Source: Escherichia coli
GTDB lineage: Bacteria > Pseudomonadota > Gammaproteobacteria > Enterobacterales > Enterobacteriaceae
Direction: 5' to 3' (one strand)
NCBI RefSeq assembly: GCF_044324875.1
Contig: NZ_CP172185.1
DNA: 64,000 bases
Shown here piece by piece: positions 4,740-59,272 of this stretch (positions are counted from its first letter, which is position 1; every line of letters starts with the position of its first letter). The translations under genes and the position numbers were made by a program. The notes under the pieces were generated by a model that ran no database searches, had not been told where the DNA came from, and saw only the letters and a list, made by a program, of their open reading frames with translations.

Positions 4740-5111
4740 ATGCGTCTGGAATTTGTTTTGCCTTACCCGCCGCCGGTGAACACTTACTGGCACCGTCGTG
4801 GTGGTAAGTATTTTGTATCAAAAGCGGGGGAACGTTATCGTCGTGATGTCAGGCTTATTGTTCGCCAGCAGCAACTGAGATTAAGGCTGACCGGAAGACT
4901 GGGTATAAAAATCATCGCAGACCCGCCAGACAACCGCCGCCGTGACCTGGACAACATACTGAAAGTACCGCTGGATGCGCTGACCCATGCGGGGCTGCTT
5001 ATTGATGACGAACAGTTTGATGAAATTTATATCGTGCGTGGCGTGTCAGTACCTGACGGGCGTCTGGGAGTGAAGATTTACGAAATTACAGGTGGTAACA
5101 ATGGCGCGTGA
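4740..5111 (+). CDS. rusA: Holliday junction resolvase RusA
   Basis: 123 aa; RusA-like sequence with conserved acidic residues ([16 protein letters not shown]); RBS GGAAGGAGGGGA upstream. Confidence 0.85.
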
Positions 5112-5526
5112 TATTCAGCAGGTTATGGAGCGATGGGGGGCATGGGTGGCGAATAACCACGAAGACGTGGAATGGTCATCCATTGCCGCCGGATTCAAGG
5201 GGCTGATACCGTCAAAAGTAAAATCGCGACCGCAGTGTTCCGATGATGACGCGATGATTATCTGTGGTTGTATGGCTCAACTGAACCGGAACAACAGTGA
5301 TTTGCATGAATTGCTGGTTGATTACTACGTGTGTGGGATGACGCTGATGAAGTTAGCAAGGAAACATGGATGTTCTGATACGCATATTGGAAAGCGTTTG
5401 CAAAAAGCTGAAGGAGTGGTTGATGGCATGTTGATGATGCTGGGAGTAAGACTTGAGATGGATCGGTATGTGAGCGTAAATTATTCGATGTGCCGTAAAA
5501 CTCCGTCCTTCAGGGCAGGGATATAA
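5101..5526 (+). CDS. Late-gene antiterminator Q-like protein
   Basis: About 141 aa, directly upstream of the tRNA/lysis region; N-terminus [15 protein letters not shown] resembles the short Q type of Stx-family lambdoid phages as recalled; Cys-rich. Confidence 0.6.
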
Positions 5527-5709: not shown

Positions 5710-6813
5710 TCAGAACTGATAAGTCAAACCAACAGCGACAATATCATCGGTTAATACATCAGTTCTTTCAGTGAATTGATTCTTATCAAGCAGGTTGATT
5801 TTATAGTCTACGTATGTAGACATATTTTTGTTGAAGTAATAAGCAGCACCGACTTCAATGAATTTTTCAATGTATCCGTCATTATGTTTTTCAGGGATAC
5901 CAGTTTTGGTGGAAAGGTCTTTGGCTTTCGACTGGATATAAGCAAGAGACGGGCGCAAACCAAAGTCGAACTGATACTGTGCAACTACAGCGAAATCTTC
6001 AGTTTTATTGGCTACACCGTTGTAGCCGCCGGGCGAGTACTTGATTGCGCGGGTATTACGTGTTTCACCATAAGTGGCTGCCAGGTACAGATTATTCGCG
6101 TCATATTTTACGCTGGTAGCCCACTGTTCAGCTTTTTTACCTTTACCAAAAGTCGTCGCTTCCTGTGCATTGGTGCGATCGGCTGCACCATATGCAGCTA
6201 CAAAACCAAAGCCTTCATATTCATAACTGACAGAGCCGCCAACACCGTCGCCGTTTGAAGTGCCTGCATTGTCACGCTCATTTTTACCCAGATACTGAAC
6301 CGCAAAGTTCAGTCCATCAACCAGACCGAAGAAGTCGGTATTACGGTAAGTGGCAACACCACCTACACGACCCACGAAGAAGTTATCCCCGTTAACAGAA
6401 CCAGGCCCAAATTCAGGGAGGACATCAGTATAGCTTAATGCGTCATACACCACGCCATAGTTACGACCATAATCCAGAGAGCCAATATTTTCTAGTTTCA
6501 GGCCAGCGTATGCCAGACGGGTTTTGTCTCCTGCAGAGCCATCTTTTTCTGCCTTGTTGCCTTTGAATTCATATTCCCATTGACCAAAACCAGTTAACTG
6601 ATTGTTGATTTGGGTTTCACCTTTGAATCCAAGACGGGCATAAGTTCCATCACCTTCTTCTTTGGCGTTAGAAGAAAAGTAATGTTTACCCACTACTTTG
6701 CCATATAAATCCAGTTTATTACTGTTTTTATTATATATTTCTGCTGCATTTGCAGACATTGCCAGAAATACTGATGCTGCTACAGCAGAAAGTGCCACTG
6801 TTAAATTTTTCAT
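5710..6813 (-). CDS. Outer membrane porin (OmpC/NmpC family) moron
   Basis: Signal peptide [29 protein letters not shown], porin-type beta-strand composition, C-terminal aromatic residue; same position and orientation as nmpC in DLP12-type prophages. Confidence 0.85.
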
Positions 6814-7565: not shown

Positions 7566-7980
7566 GCGCCGACTTACCTCAGTCGGCAGAACAGTTTAGT
7601 TGTAACCATCAGGCCACCACTTCAATTCCGGTAGTCGGCACTAAATTTCCAAGCTCGTGCTCACGGCCTGCTTCATATCCGCGCCAGGTCCGTCGCGATT
7701 AAACCACAGGGCTTTTCAGGAGGGGCCACAGAGAGCGTCACACTGACCATTCCCTGTGGCTTGTGCTGAGATCCGGTCAGTGAAATTGTGCAAAGGGAAT
7801 CTTCGGGAGCTTTGGGCAGAATGTCAGTTATTGATGTTGACATCCTCCACACCCTGAAGGTCGGGGTTTTACGGCGCACTGGATAAAATACCTGAACAAA
7901 CAGCCTCTTCGTGCGGCTTTTTTATAACGAGATTCTGACTTGCTGCCGTCCGTAATGTCGGATGGCGGAGGTGAGGGACT

Positions 7981-8253
7981 ATGAGAATGGACGAACGATA
8001 CAGTAACGCTGCATACGGCAGCGCAGGACTTGTTGCGTTCTTTGCCAGCCTGTCACTGCAGGATTGGGGATTTATTATCGGCGTGGCGTTCAGTATCATT
8101 CTTGGCGTTCTTACTTATCGCCTTAACAAACGGGAGCAGGAAAAACGAACCCGCATATTGCTCGAAATTCTGGAACGAACTAATGCCGGTAATGTTCCGG
8201 CTACGGCACATGCTGTGGCTGAGATTGCGAAAAAGGCACCAAAAGAAATATGA
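7981..8253 (+). CDS. Holin (two predicted transmembrane segments; dual-start MRM motif)
   Basis: 90 aa, hydrophobic stretches LVAFFASLSL and FIIGVAFSIILGVLTY, charged C-terminus; SD GGAGGTGAGGG; immediately upstream of lysis genes. Confidence 0.6.
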   Translation: MRMDERYSNAAYGSAGLVAFFASLSLQDWGFIIGVAFSIILGVLTYRLNKREQEKRTRILLEILERTNAGNVPATAHAVAEIAKKAPKEI

Positions 8254-8910: not shown

Positions 8911-9444
8911 ATGAACGCAAAAATCAGATACGGCCTGTCGGCTGCCGTTCTGGCGCTGATTGGTGCTGGCGCATCTGCTCCTCAGATACTTGATCAGTTT
9001 CTGGACGAAAAAGAGGGTAACCACACAACGGCATACCGCGATGGGTCCGGCATCTGGACCATCTGTCGGGGTGCCACGATGGTGGATGGAAAACCCGTTT
9101 TTCCCGGAATGAAGCTGTCGAAGGAAAAATGCGACCAGGTTAACGCTATTGAACGTGATAAGGCACTGGCATGGGTGGAGCGCAATATTAAAGTACCTCT
9201 GACCGAACCACAGAAAGCGGGTATTGCGTCATTCTGTCCCTATAACATTGGCCCCGGTAAGTGTTTCCCGTCGACGTTTTATAAGCGGCTTAATGCCGGT
9301 GATCGAAAAGGCGCCTGCGAGGCGATTCGCTGGTGGATAAAGGATGGTGGGCGTGACTGCCGTATCCGTTCAAATAACTGCTATGGACAGGTTATTCGTC
9401 GTGACCAGGAAAGCGCATTAGCCTGTTGGGGGATAGATCAGTGA
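8911..9444 (+). CDS. Endolysin, lysozyme with N-terminal signal-anchor-release (SAR) domain
   Basis: 177 aa; N-terminal hydrophobic [16 protein letters not shown]-x8-D-x5-T catalytic spacing ([16 protein letters not shown]). Confidence 0.85.
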
Positions 9445-9908
9445 GCAGAGTCGCCGCGATTATTTATGCTCTGGTTATCTGCATCATCGTCTGCCTGTCG
9501 TTGGCGGTCAATCATTACCGTGATAACGCCATAGCCTACAAAGAACAACGTGATAAAAAAGTCAGTGAGCTGAAGCAGGCGACCGCCACCATCGCTGACA
9601 TGCAGCAGCGTCAGCGTGATGTTGCTGCGCTCGATGCAAAATACACGAAGGAGTTAGCTGATGCGAAAGCTGAAAATGATGCTCTTCGGCGCAAGCTTGA
9701 TAATGGTGGCAGGGTGCTCGTCAAAGGAAAATGCCCTGTGCCATCCTCAGCCGAAACCTCCAGCGCCTCCGGCATGGGCAATGATGCCACCGTCGAACTC
9801 TCTCCAGTTGCTGGACGAAACGTTCTCGGTATCCGGGACGGAATTATCCGCGACCAGACAGCACTGAGAACGCTTCAGGAATACATCAGGACGCAATGCC
9901 TTCGATGA
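9441..9908 (+). CDS. Rz-like inner-membrane spanin (i-spanin)
   Basis: N-terminal TM segment [19 protein letters not shown] then coiled-coil-like region; probable GTG start overlapping endolysin stop. Confidence 0.65.
9661..9867 (+). CDS. Rz1-like outer-membrane lipoprotein spanin (o-spanin), embedded in Rz in +1 frame
   Basis: Lipobox MVAGCSS, proline-rich [11 protein letters not shown]; fully nested within Rz. Confidence 0.6.
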
Positions 9909-10108: not shown

Positions 10109-10540
10109 TGCCATTACAAAAGCCACTCCCTACAGAGTGGCTTTGATAATGGCTTATACCCTACACGGGATAACTTAACTGATATCCCTTTTAACGGATA
10201 AAGGTATTCAAGCCTGACACATCATGCGCTGTATCGTCGCTGTATTCCCGCATTAACCATGACCGTAGCCCGACGGGGAACTCCTTCTGCGCGAGTGTGC
10301 GGGAATAATCAAAAACGATGCACACCGGGTTTTTACCGCGCTAATGATTCGCGGGTTTGTCCCTCATGCTCGCCAGTCCGGTGCGATGGTGGAAGAAACC
10401 GGAAGCTGTATTACAGAAAGTGCTACTACTGTATCCTGATGCGATGTATGTAATGTGAGTCAGATAATGGCACAGGATGTGGTGATGTGGCAGTCTGGAA
10501 CACAGGATATATTGTCAGAATAAGACCCGTAGGAATAAAA

Positions 10541-10867
10541 ATGAAAAGACGCCTTTCACTACTTTTTCTGTTATCTGCCCTGGCAGTGGGATGCTCGCAG
10601 CAAAAAGCTGATGAGCCCCGGCAATTAGTGACGGTGTATCCACGATATCCGGAATATGCTGCAGCAAATTATATCAAGGGGCTGGTTGAGGTTAAGTTCG
10701 ATATTGGTGCTGACGGGACTGTGACACGGATCGTTTTTCTCCGCTCAGAGCCTCATAATTTGTTTCGTGATGAAGTGGTGAAGGCCATGGCGAAATGGAG
10801 ATTTGAAAAGAATAGTCCCCGTCAGGGAGTGAAGAGACAATTTATCTTTACGCCATCACGTCCCTGA
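10541..10867 (+). CDS. Lipoprotein with TonB C-terminal-like domain (moron)
   Basis: Signal/lipobox MKRRLSLLFLLSALAVGC; C-terminal region GLVEVKFDIGADGTVTRIVFLRSEPHNLFRDEVVKAMAKWRFE matches the TonB C-terminal pattern (compare E. coli TonB GQVKVKFDVTPDGRVDNVQIL...FEREVKNAMRRWRYE). Confidence 0.6.
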   Translation: MKRRLSLLFLLSALAVGCSQQKADEPRQLVTVYPRYPEYAAANYIKGLVEVKFDIGADGTVTRIVFLRSEPHNLFRDEVVKAMAKWRFEKNSPRQGVKRQFIFTPSRP

Positions 10868-55627: not shown

Positions 55628-58600
55628 TTAATGGAAAATGACGTCGGGTGCGCTTAACGCCTCACTCAAATCAAACACATCAAGTTCGGCAAAAGTGACA
55701 GATTTATTGTCACGGTATACATGAAGAGAACGGAAGCTCATTAGCGCTTTGCTATCAACATTGTAGTGGTTAAAACCGGGTGAAAACTTAAGGACCAGCC
55801 GGTACGCACCCAGGTCATAGACAAATGCGTCCTCATAGCCTGACTCCCAGCCTTTGTATCGCATTCCCATCAGTTGCCCAACGGTAGCGGATTTACCTTC
55901 CCAGCGATTCAAACTATTACTGGCTGACTCGTCAGGTGTGAGCAGCACCGTACGCCGTGCCAACTGGCGAAAAGGCGGCATAATTTCGTAATCGTCAAAA
56001 AGCTGTGCAAATTCACTGCGCATTTCTGCTGCCATTTCTAACGGGTGGGCAATGCCAATCAGAGCATCGGCAGGCAAGTCAATTGGCTCATCTTGCGCAT
56101 TGCAGAACTCCCCCTCAGCGGCCACACGAAAGGCGTTGAGTAAACGACGCGGTTCATTTGCCGGATAAACACCCCATATCAATCGCTGAGTAACCAGGCG
56201 GGTAAAGGGATGATTAACAAACAGAGAATGAAAATCTGCCAGCGACCAGCGTCGGGTGGTGCGCAGGGCAGTTTCAAGACGCGGGAGCAGGTTTTTGCTC
56301 ACCTGAGTGGCATCTTTTTTTAGCCCTTTTAGTCGGGCCAGTGCCTCGGGTGCTTTCAGTTGATCGTCATCGGCGCGCAACCGGGGAACGCTTTTCTGGC
56401 GAACGTTTTGCTGATCAAAGATAACCGGGTTAAGGTTTTCATCGAAGCGAACGGTAAATTGCCGTGGACCAAAATCAAAAATCAACGCCTGCGGATCATC
56501 AAGACCCAGTGTTGGGACTAATCTGTCCGCTAACTGTTCCTGGCTTAGCCCGCGATTTTCTGCGACCACCTGAAGAAATTCCGCCGCGTTATCACGTAAG
56601 GGGCGGGATTTCGCCCGTTGCGATATATGATGCAGCTGTATCAGTGCCATATCATTATTCATCTGAGTAAGGATGTTCAGGCCGCTGACGGCACGGGCAG
56701 ATTTGCCTTCCTGTGGCCAGGCAAGGATCTGTGTCGTCAGATCCCGTGCCGTGCTTTCGTCGCCAAAGAGACTTAACGCCAGAAATGCCCAGTTGTCTTT
56801 TGCGGGAGCACCAGCTTGTTGCCACGCGGTGAAAAGATCCCAGGCAAAGGCTGCCAGCGTTTGCGGCTGGCAAAACGTTTTCAGCTGTTCCAGTCCGCTA
56901 TAAAAACGTCCGCCCTGGGTAAAGCGCAGCATTTCGCCGATAATTTCCAGAGCGTCATCAGTAACTGGTTGATTATTCGTGATAAGGCGCGGCCTGGACC
57001 ACATTGCCGGCTGCCAGAAATCAGGGGCTTTTGGAATGCGTGTCGGGTAAATCTCTATTGGACTCTGTTTAAGTAATTGCTCCAGGGCAGGCCATACATC
57101 TGTACGCTGCCAGCGGTTTGCCACGGTTTGCAGTAACTCGCCATGTCCCTGTTCGTAAAGTAAACGCAGGGCAAGTAATGCAGCTTCGCTATTATCGCTG
57201 GATTTGGTGAAGACAAGAGGGATAAGTGCAGTAGCCGTATGTTCCGGCCACTGTAAAATCCACTGGCGGGCCAGATCACGCTGCGCCGCGAAACGTCGCC
57301 AGACGCGGGCAACGGGCAGGGCCAGTTCGGTTGCGCCGAAATGAATTAGCAGCGGAAATATCTCTTTTGGATGTCGGGCAAAGGCGGTGTTTAATCCAGG
57401 CAAAGCATCAGTGCCCAGCACACTTAACAGATATTCCACCCCGGTGTAATGAAAATCAGCCGCAACAATTTGTTGCCAGCACGATACCGCCATTTCGCGC
57501 GGCATTTGCGCGATAAGGTACAGATTCCATATCCCCCAACGCTTTTCATTACCATAGTAAAATCCGTGCTGAAAAGTTCGCCACCCTTCCATCAACGCAA
57601 TGCTATCTTGTACCAATAATGCTTTGGTGGCTTCTTCCCGGTACTGTTTAGATTTGGCCTGATGCGCGTAATAAGTACGCAATAGTCCTATTGATGTGTA
57701 TTCTTGCAGTTGCTGAGCATCAAAGGCATCCAACTGTCCATTAAGAAGACGCTTATTAAATTCCAGGCTATGAACGTCAAAGCCTAATTCCCGCAAGAAT
57801 GTATCCGCTCCTCTCTTAGCAAGACGTTCGTCAAAAGACATGGCGCTAAAATGGTCAATTGCAGTTTGCTGTTCCGGCGTCCAGTGTTCCTGGGACGACC
57901 TGCACGCTTGCGTTGCAAGTGTAAGTTCAGGCAGCGAAAAGTGAGGTATGGAAGTCTTTTTCCTGCCACGCCACGGTGGTGAAACGAGGATTTCAGGCAG
58001 ACTGCTGTTATCGGTGCAATCTATAACCGGTTTTGACGATGCCGATAAATAACTCTTCACCACTGCCCGGGCTTGAGTACTTAACCACGGCATCACCTCT
58101 TCTGCCAGTTGTGGCTGCGATGCCATCAGCGTTTGTAACAGCGTACGCCAGTATTCATCACGTGCTTTTTGCTGTGCAGGCAGCTTTTTGTCTTCGATGA
58201 TTGGATAACCAGGGCGTGCAGGCGGTTCTTTTAACGCCAGAAGCTCTGCCAGTGCGGCAAGCGTCGCATGGGGGAAATTTTTACTGTATTTAGCTACACG
58301 TTGCAGGCTGGGTTTGTTTTTATCAGCAACTAACAGCAGGGTGCGGATGACCTGCGGATGGTTAATTTGTACCAGCAGACTGCCGCAATCTTCTTTATGG
58401 GCATACATTGCCAGGCGTGGAACGGCTGCCAGTCCTTGTTCGCGCAAAAGGGCGGCGCAGGCCGCGTAGCCGAAGTGGTTTTCATGCGACATGTAGCTGG
58501 CTTCCCGATCGCTAAATATATCCTGGCTCCAGTAGCGTTCGAGTTTTTTCACCGCTCTGGGGTCATTAGCAACAACTTTTAACCACTCCTTAGAATGAAA

Positions 58601-59272
58601 ATGAGTCCGCGGGCATTCAAGGCCTACCAACTCATTGGCGATTTCTGGTTTTTCCGGGAGGATCAGCGCAATAAAAGGGCGGCGAACTTTGGTTATTCCT
58701 GGCAGTGCGGCAATGAGTTTGTCGGCGCAACGCTGCCAGCTGCTTTCCTCTGCCAGAGAGAGATGCTTACGCAGTCGGAGATCGAATTCGTTATAGGTTT
58801 CTGATCGATAACCATAGCCATAATCCTCGTTCTGATACTGCAATGTCACTAGCAGAGGATCACTCTCATAACACCGTGCAATAAACTGGCGTGCAATCAC
58901 CACCTCAGTCGCATATTCCAGTCCCTCTTGTTGGACGATTTCGTCGAGCAACTGTTGGCTATCATTTTGCGCGATACAGGCTAGCGCCGCCATTGTCCGG
59001 GCCGGAACTGAGGGTTTGTGTTCTCCGATCAAGTTGATGGCCTGCGTAATGGCCGACTGCCACTCCAGTGAAAAATTTTCATAACGCCAGACAATGTTTT
59101 TTTTCTTCTCAGCTTTTTGTAGCAATTCATCACCCAGTGTCTGGATGAGGCTTTCAGTGATAACAGGCACCGGTTCGCCCGGCCAACTGCGATGGCTGAG
59201 CGGCGTTTTGCCTTTTTTATATTTCAGTTCCACTTGGGCGTTATCCGCCAGCCACGGTAATTCCTTGTCCAT
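55628..59272 (-). CDS. yehI: YehI-like large protein (DUF4132 family)
   Basis: 1214 aa; C-terminal region shares DFGPRQFTV.FDE...LKKD...RRW...HP..R.L.RRLIWGVY with the two adjacent paralogues. Confidence 0.8.
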   Translation of the reverse strand: MDKELPWLADNAQVELKYKKGKTPLSHRSWPGEPVPVITESLIQTLGDELLQKAEKKKNIVWRYENFSLEWQSAITQAINLIGEHKPSVPARTMAALACIAQNDSQQLLDEIVQQEGLEYATEVVIARQFIARCYESDPLLVTLQYQNEDYGYGYRSETYNEFDLRLRKHLSLAEESSWQRCADKLIAALPGITKVRRPFIALILPEKPEIANELVGLECPRTHFHSKEWLKVVANDPRAVKKLERYWSQDIFSDREASYMSHENHFGYAACAALLREQGLAAVPRLAMYAHKEDCGSLLVQINHPQVIRTLLLVADKNKPSLQRVAKYSKNFPHATLAALAELLALKEPPARPGYPIIEDKKLPAQQKARDEYWRTLLQTLMASQPQLAEEVMPWLSTQARAVVKSYLSASSKPVIDCTDNSSLPEILVSPPWRGRKKTSIPHFSLPELTLATQACRSSQEHWTPEQQTAIDHFSAMSFDERLAKRGADTFLRELGFDVHSLEFNKRLLNGQLDAFDAQQLQEYTSIGLLRTYYAHQAKSKQYREEATKALLVQDSIALMEGWRTFQHGFYYGNEKRWGIWNLYLIAQMPREMAVSCWQQIVAADFHYTGVEYLLSVLGTDALPGLNTAFARHPKEIFPLLIHFGATELALPVARVWRRFAAQRDLARQWILQWPEHTATALIPLVFTKSSDNSEAALLALRLLYEQGHGELLQTVANRWQRTDVWPALEQLLKQSPIEIYPTRIPKAPDFWQPAMWSRPRLITNNQPVTDDALEIIGEMLRFTQGGRFYSGLEQLKTFCQPQTLAAFAWDLFTAWQQAGAPAKDNWAFLALSLFGDESTARDLTTQILAWPQEGKSARAVSGLNILTQMNNDMALIQLHHISQRAKSRPLRDNAAEFLQVVAENRGLSQEQLADRLVPTLGLDDPQALIFDFGPRQFTVRFDENLNPVIFDQQNVRQKSVPRLRADDDQLKAPEALARLKGLKKDATQVSKNLLPRLETALRTTRRWSLADFHSLFVNHPFTRLVTQRLIWGVYPANEPRRLLNAFRVAAEGEFCNAQDEPIDLPADALIGIAHPLEMAAEMRSEFAQLFDDYEIMPPFRQLARRTVLLTPDESASNSLNRWEGKSATVGQLMGMRYKGWESGYEDAFVYDLGAYRLVLKFSPGFNHYNVDSKALMSFRSLHVYRDNKSVTFAELDVFDLSEALSAPDVIFH

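Follow-up and report, generated by a model that had tools for sequence, protein, structure and literature searches.

The closest described systems are the holins of phages lambda, 21 and HP1. In lambda, a stem-loop termed sdi reportedly overlaps the Shine-Dalgarno (SD) sequence of the holin gene S and partitions initiation between two starts, from which S107 and S105 arise. The phage 21 record likewise annotates dual-start products, the antiholin S21-71 and the holin S21-68. In S107 and S21-71, the extra N-terminal positive charge hinders movement of the N-terminus and the first transmembrane domain (TMD1) across the energised membrane (PMC9636201, PMC6116005). The holin of the Haemophilus phage HP1, which is the nearest experimentally studied Pfam relative of the protein described here, has neither a dual-start motif nor a known antiholin, and a C-out topology was reported for it upon over-expression (PMC7312051). 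Here we analyze a gene in a 64,000-nt stretch of Escherichia coli DNA (the window) which, judging by its sequence and that of its relatives, is one of the common phage genes for the timing of lysis and, through two starts, very probably gives rise to a hole-forming protein as well as to the inhibitor of that protein.

The initial annotation had described an open reading frame (ORF) that opens with Met-Arg-Met, and its coordinates, the 90-aa translation and the ATG-AGA-ATG start all match the sequence (Table 1). An in-frame TGA at 7972-7974, 9 nt 5' of ATG1, excludes a start upstream of 7981. The purine tract that precedes the gene contains GGAGGTGA, which can pair with the 16S 3' end over 8 nt and has its GGAGG core 9 nt before ATG1. 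The offset between this core and the second, GAGGG, is 6 nt and equals that of ATG1 and ATG2. The same tandem layout of SD cores is found in leaders of holin homologues, e.g. GGAGGTGGAGAT. Taken by itself, an M-[KR]-M start is uncommon without being rare: in six frames over the whole window, 2 of 173 ATG ORFs of at least 60 aa begin with it. The second of these, 58595-58804, was rejected as spurious; it lacks an SD and is contained in a long gene on the opposite strand. What raises the motif above chance is its conservation in the family, not its presence in the window. The exact protein sequence is present in 19 of 5,426 complete E. coli genomes, and its PGAP entry, WP_029400649.1, is named either "phage holin family protein" or "hypothetical protein". 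We consider it probable, on the comparisons set out below, that both starts are used and yield a holin/antiholin pair.

Table 1. Features of the holin gene, its leader and the surrounding late region, with positions in the window.
Feature	Position	Strand	Description
Late antiterminator Q	5092-5526	+	Pfam Phage_antitermQ 5.8e-52; upstream regulator of the lysis transcript
General porin, full length	5710-6813	-	Pfam Porin_1 2.7e-127; between Q and the lysis genes
Two phage tRNAs	7412-7565		Upstream of the holin gene
Leader RNA hairpin (predicted), pairing the SD tract	7934-7976	+	Core a perfect 10-bp stem, 7943-7952/7959-7968
Weaker outer helices of the leader hairpin	7938-7941/7969-7972; 7934-7936/7974-7976	+	
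Purine tract with two SD-like cores 6 nt apart	7967-7977	+	GGAGGTGA 7967-7974; GAGGG 7973-7977; read from the sequence
Holin gene	7981-8253	+	273 nt including stop; 90-aa long form from Met1, N-terminus MRMDERY; ORF listing and PHROG 1350
ATG1 (Met1)	7981-7983	+	Putative 90-aa antiholin start; read from the sequence
Arg2 codon AGA (rare)	7984-7986	+	Between ATG1 and ATG2
ATG2 (Met3)	7987-7989	+	Putative 88-aa holin start; aligns with S21 Met4 and the sole start of the P2-like relative P0117
TMD1 (predicted)	8008-8058	+	Residues ~10-26, AAYGSAGLVAFFASLSL; weakly hydrophobic, Ala/Gly/Ser-rich; mean Kyte-Doolittle 1.5 over 17 residues
TMD2 (predicted)	8065-8118	+	Residues ~29-46, WGFIIGVAFSIILGVLTY; strongly hydrophobic; Kyte-Doolittle 2.2
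C-terminal tail	8119-8250	+	Residues 47-90; 10 K/R, 6 D/E, net +4; predicted cytoplasmic
Reverse-strand ORF remnant, 125 aa	8410-8787	-	PHROG 1853 (unknown function) from profile position 57 on; PGAP: incomplete pseudogene
SAR endolysin	8911-9444	+	Pfam Phage_lysozyme 1.4e-24; SAR-like N-terminal segment; E-x8-D-x5-T catalytic motif
Rz, inner-membrane spanin	9441-9908	+	Pfam Phage_lysis 4.5e-31; GTG start from PGAP, verified in the sequence
Rz1, outer-membrane lipoprotein spanin	9661-9867	+	Nested in Rz, other frame; Pfam Rz1 3.9e-21, PHROG 3198
Small protein with TonB C-terminal domain	10487-10867	+	3.8e-13; signal-peptide/lipoprotein-like N-terminus; downstream of Rz/Rz1

The protein matches the PHROG 1350 profile over its full length (E 3.1e-29, residues 1-89 on profile positions 1-96 of 97); the "holin" label of this profile is an annotation with no assayed function behind it. 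Its Pfam matches, all of them sub-threshold, are solely to two class II holin families: the HP1 holin (PF16080, Phage_holin_2_3), which is the top match with 22.4 bits against a gathering cut-off of 28.8, and the phage 21 holin S (PF04971), with 19.6 bits against a cut-off of 26. In precomputed data PF16080 is assigned to many relatives ~77% identical to the window protein, and by these scores the family as a whole is at the edge of the PF16080 model. A search of NCBIfam gave no match, a sequence search of solved structures gave no relative, and a literature search gave no experimental paper on this holin family. Among 1.84 billion protein cluster representatives, the family comprises 49 at E <=1e-3, mostly enterobacterial.

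Topology prediction, a check that the initial annotation had proposed, returned two adjacent hydrophobic helices and a basic tail, both by hydropathy and in an AlphaFold2 model. The model has low confidence (pLDDT 64), rising to ~80 in the TMD2 block with its helix from residue 26, and was used for helix boundaries alone; it places helices at residues 4-22, 26-67 and 74-85. The features of a class II holin, namely two TMDs, a weakly hydrophobic TMD1 and a charged tail, are present by prediction. To relate the family to S21, we compared an 18-member family profile with the S21 sequence by hhalign, using a query that is 100% identical to the phage 21 record. The alignment (probability 71%, E 3.6e-5, 43% identity over 46 columns) spans both TMDs and starts with Met3-Asp of the window protein on Met4-Asp of S21, i.e. 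the S21-68 start. The TMD2 segments of the two proteins have the pattern ..LG.LTY..N in common. The holin call made initially holds up on four grounds: the full-length PHROG 1350 match, the two hydrophobic helices with a basic tail, the slot behind Q and the tRNAs and before a SAR lysozyme and Rz/Rz1, and a SAR endolysin gene directly next to the holin gene in more than 70 related loci. Together they identify the gene as a predicted class II, two-transmembrane-helix holin gene of a lambdoid prophage.

The size of the hole is not readable from sequence. In the related viral loci, of which there are more than 70, an endolysin with a Gly/Ala-rich SAR N-terminus starts -4 to +3 nt from the holin gene, and this N-terminus is often R21-like. 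The endolysin of the window is 34% identical to the phage 21 SAR endolysin (E 2e-22), and its gene has 94% DNA identity to the "lysozyme R" of coliphages such as mEp460. Because the architecture is S21-like, with an Ala/Gly/Ser-rich TMD1 and the shared TMD2 pattern, and because the partners of the family are almost exclusively SAR endolysins, a pinhole would be the most likely lesion and a pinholin the more likely hole type. It is unlikely that the dual-start holin opens large, non-specific holes, as lambda S does, with the SAR endolysin released by depolarisation. Such a holin would fit the weakness of the S21 similarity and a 44-residue C-terminal tail that is much longer than that of S21, and holins other than pinholins are paired with SAR endolysins elsewhere, for example P1 LydA with Lyz (PMC9025707). 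The two TMDs of S21 type and the many R21-like endolysin N-termini argue against it.

Comparison of homologues supports a dual start. The N-terminus is covered by 99 homologue clusters from Escherichia, Salmonella, Serratia, Hafnia, Yersinia, Providencia, Rahnella and others, with identities down to ~57%. M-[K/R]-M is found in about 90 of them, and 87 begin with MKM or MRM as called. Three clusters that had been called from Met3 were inspected: L090 has ATG-AGA-ATG and L091 GTG-AGG-ATG, and L092, whose contig ends 4 nt upstream, is consistent with ATG-AAA-ATG. Divergent members that begin with MRIM or M[RK]WIGGMM retain two Met residues and a basic residue; the motif is lost only in MKI and MKK, two variants that each come from a single contig. 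At codon 2, the basic residue is encoded by AAG, AAA, AGA, AGG or CGA. In most of these variants one purine replaces another, and such exchanges would yield K or R in 6 of 8 combinations anyway. In P2-like relatives (e.g. P0117) the Met3 position is the only start, with no start upstream, and is thus competent for initiation. From this distribution it looks like the short form is the ancestral holin, to which Met-Lys/Arg was added as an extension.

Could only one of the two starts work? The gene would then encode a holin whose Met-Arg-Met was inherited along with an N-terminus that is conserved or a leader module that recombines, and either Met1 would be the sole start or Met1 would be silent and the 88-aa form made alone. 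The N-terminal half is highly conserved as a whole and Met3 does not stand out in it, so conservation of Met3 is by itself not specific evidence for a start. Gene callers disagree within the family, predicting 88-aa or 90-aa products, a very stable hairpin in the window buries the SD for Met1, and the HP1 holin functions without a dual start (PMC7312051). Nevertheless, we regard a single start as unlikely. The shifted variants MRIM, GTG-AGG-ATG and MRWIGGMM keep two starts and a basic residue, the Met3 position is competent, and a dual start of the same geometry is annotated for S21. Moreover, some members of the family carry the same leader and ATGAAGATG as lambda S, whose dual start is established by experiment.

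If both starts are used, the leader upstream of them would be the place where their use is set. The segment 7930-7992 (63 nt), which includes the predicted hairpin, has a folding energy of -26.8 kcal/mol (z -5.1), and 0 of 200 shuffles were as stable. Each of the 26-29 distinct homologous leaders has a hairpin in the corresponding place, with its 3' arm ending 7-8 nt before ATG1; these leaders are largely unrelated in sequence and their stems differ. This layout recurs in the leaders of lambda S and phage 21 S. The hairpin does not exceed the controls in stability in many homologous leaders, but the validated lambda sdi itself scores z -0.85 in this test, and the shuffle test is therefore of little power either way. 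We also computed SD pairing with the SD kept fixed and the upstream sequence shuffled or swapped for random window sequence. Mean pairing is 0.74 in the homologous leaders, against 0.63 for shuffled upstream sequence and 0.52 for random window sequence; we do not lean on this excess because a G-rich SD pairs with almost anything.

Covariation was assessed in two alignments. RNAalifold, run on a MAFFT alignment of ten leaders, recovered the helix with few compensatory changes. In an alignment fitted to a covariance model, which is biased towards the structure to which it was fitted, 6 of 7 pairs have double changes and 72.9% of the cells pair, as compared with 63.7% in shuffles; its covariation score of 0.125 (shuffled, 0.074) was reached by 0 of 500 shuffles. 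Covariation lends the predicted hairpin modest support. Rfam holds no family for the holin leader, and a search of the phage collection with the window leader (7860-7992) returned nothing relevant and traced no other holin type.

The hairpin changes how the SD is to be read. The initial annotation called the SD strong, and the 8 nt of 16S complementarity bear this out; the hairpin was overlooked, and because it pairs the SD tract, the SD is probably mostly masked. The outer helices of the window hairpin pair the second SD core as well, so the hairpin may damp both starts and not choose between them.

Two observations concern the surroundings of these leaders. The covariance model gave weak extra matches (E 0.005-0.4) in L022 and L023 at 511-552 and in L076 at 453-490, ~2 kb upstream of the holin gene; another gene may start there, with hairpin and SD arranged in a similar way. 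Many homologous loci (e.g. L070, L022, L053) have a terminator, composed of a GC stem and a T-run, 30-60 nt 5' of the holin start. The window version (7902-7925, + strand) is weak, with a 4-bp stem followed by TTTTTT, and at -5.3 kcal/mol is no better than shuffles. Terminators in this place are presumably read through by Q-modified polymerase.

Part of the family has its leader in common with lambda. In three loci (L028 2401-2509, L054 1942-2050 and L026 2401-2509), ~100 nt of leader are homologous at the DNA level to the lambda S leader (L083 87-195). The homology covers the CCCC/GGGG stem of sdi and ATGAAGATG and stops directly after the second ATG; beyond the leader, the holins of these loci are unrelated to lambda S. 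By this homology, part of the family has a mosaic joint at the dual start, immediately 3' of its second ATG. Three other holin families, which start with MKM or MYRM and come from Klebsiella and Serratia phages, are preceded by leaders of this type. The window's own leader has no homology to that of lambda. Taken together, the M-[K/R]-M conservation, the alignment of S21 and P2-like proteins at Met3, the sdi-like hairpin and the lambda leader homology support the lambda S-like dual-start arrangement that had been proposed from the window alone.

A further reading starts from the end of the lambda S homology after the second ATG in L028 and L054 and from the occurrence of this leader type before three other families. 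The hairpin, the in-register SD cores and Met-basic-Met might constitute a portable timing cassette that is swapped between unrelated lambdoid holin genes with its joint after the second ATG, and that in this prophage acts as a near-complete translational lock, opened by a further input such as temperature, an RNA helicase, a nuclease or upstream translation. The idea of a lock is based on the unusually stable window hairpin (-26.8 kcal/mol), in which both SD cores are paired. We consider this combined reading improbable.

The gene is embedded in a lambdoid late region (Table 1). The stop codon of the lysozyme gene is overlapped by the GTG start of Rz, and terminase and structural genes are located downstream of the lysis genes. 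An insert of 657 nt between holin and endolysin genes occurs only in window-type loci, where the SAR lysozyme is of a different, Stx-phage-like type; the reverse-strand ORF in the insert is probably what is left of a cargo gene that had inserted there. A very improbable alternative is that the gene has no role in lysis and encodes a small membrane cargo protein, such as an exclusion factor or an accessory one, while another gene supplies the holin: the Pfam scores stay below threshold and NCBIfam has no match, 657 nt with a reverse-strand ORF remnant separate the gene from the endolysin in this prophage, and a porin and a TonB_C protein are nearby as other cargo, but the ORF listing has no alternative holin candidate between Q and Rz1, the gene occupies the canonical holin slot in more than 70 related loci, where it overlaps or abuts the endolysin start, and it matches PHROG 1350 and resembles S21.

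The porin slot between Q and the lysis genes carries cargo genes in many lambdoid prophages, and next to the porin of one sister genome there is an IS5-family element. Phage 21 has a TonB C-terminal-domain protein at a similar place, downstream of bor. The first tRNA has the anticodon CAT and is assigned to Met by ARAGORN and to Ile by PGAP. The second is a Lys(TTT) tRNA, which scores just 31.2 bits against the Rfam tRNA model (gathering score 29). A sister prophage (L002 2013-2166) with an identical holin region has an Arg(TCT) tRNA in this second slot that differs at ~11 of 77 positions, which points to a switch of anticodon among paralogous phage tRNAs. We considered a link between the rare AGA codon 2 and the neighboring phage tRNA and rejected it, as identical holin regions occur with either Lys(UUU) or Arg(UCU) tRNA.

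We infer the use of both starts, inhibition by the long form, hairpin control of the ratio and the size of the hole from these comparisons, and the following sequence of events would accommodate them. The holin gene would be transcribed from the Q-dependent late promoter, and the transcript would carry the leader hairpin. Initiation at Met3 would yield the 88-aa hole-forming holin, and initiation at Met1 a 90-aa form with one additional basic residue, Arg2. While the hairpin is closed, the upstream SD core would be hidden and Met3 favored via the downstream purine tract, which is ~9-10 nt away and weakly paired. Once the hairpin opens, the GGAGGTGA core would be exposed 9 nt from Met1 and the 90-aa form made, so that the leader hairpin would set the ratio of the 90-aa to the 88-aa form. 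By analogy to S107/S105 of lambda and S21-71/S21-68, the charge of Arg2 may hold the N-terminus and TMD1 in an inactive topology across the energised membrane. The long form would thus be a weak antiholin, delaying triggering and turning active when the membrane potential collapses. A small, depolarising pinhole would then free the membrane-tethered endolysin, after which Rz/Rz1 would breach the outer membrane.

Together with lambda and phage 21, this would be the third lambdoid holin lineage that appears to encode a lysis effector and its inhibitor in one gene. The control region, comprising hairpin, SD tract and two starts, appears to be common to otherwise unrelated holin genes, partly by direct DNA homology, and the family offers a natural, compact test set for the influence of hairpin stability on the timing of lysis. 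For annotation, both products should be recorded; gene callers now pick either start. The current understanding of phage lysis is unchanged by this gene.

Among known systems, phage 21 S21 (PF04971) occupies the same lambdoid late-region slot upstream of a SAR endolysin and Rz/Rz1, has two TMDs with an Ala/Gly/Ser-rich TMD1 and an SD-sequestering hairpin upstream, and can be aligned with the window protein from the holin start through both TMDs. Both short forms begin with Met-Asp, and both long forms add a basic residue (MKSM in S21, MRM in the window). Sequence similarity is weak, however (hhalign 71%; Pfam below gathering), and the two genes differ in detail: the starts are one codon apart in the window and two in S21, the inter-helix turn has 2 residues (Gln-Asp) as compared with an S21 loop of ~7, the tail has 44 residues as compared with ~13, and the window hairpin is far more stable (-26.8 against -12.3 kcal/mol).

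In lambda S, the start geometry, Met-basic-Met, is identical, a hairpin just 5' of the starts masks the upstream SD, and some members of the window's holin family carry a lambda-homologous leader up to and including ATGAAGATG. In contrast, lambda S is a class I holin with three TMDs, has no sequence similarity to the window protein past Met3 and works with a soluble endolysin. The window leader is not homologous to that of lambda, and codon 2 is the rare AGA (Arg) in the window but AAG (Lys) in lambda. The HP1 holin (PF16080), the best Pfam match, is a small class II holin that is also paired with a SAR endolysin, yet the window protein stays below its gathering threshold (22.4 against 28.8). 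Functionally, the window gene would correspond to the arrangement of lambda S and phage 21 S, and by membership it belongs, on its profile scores, to PHROG 1350, outside the thresholds of both class II Pfam families.
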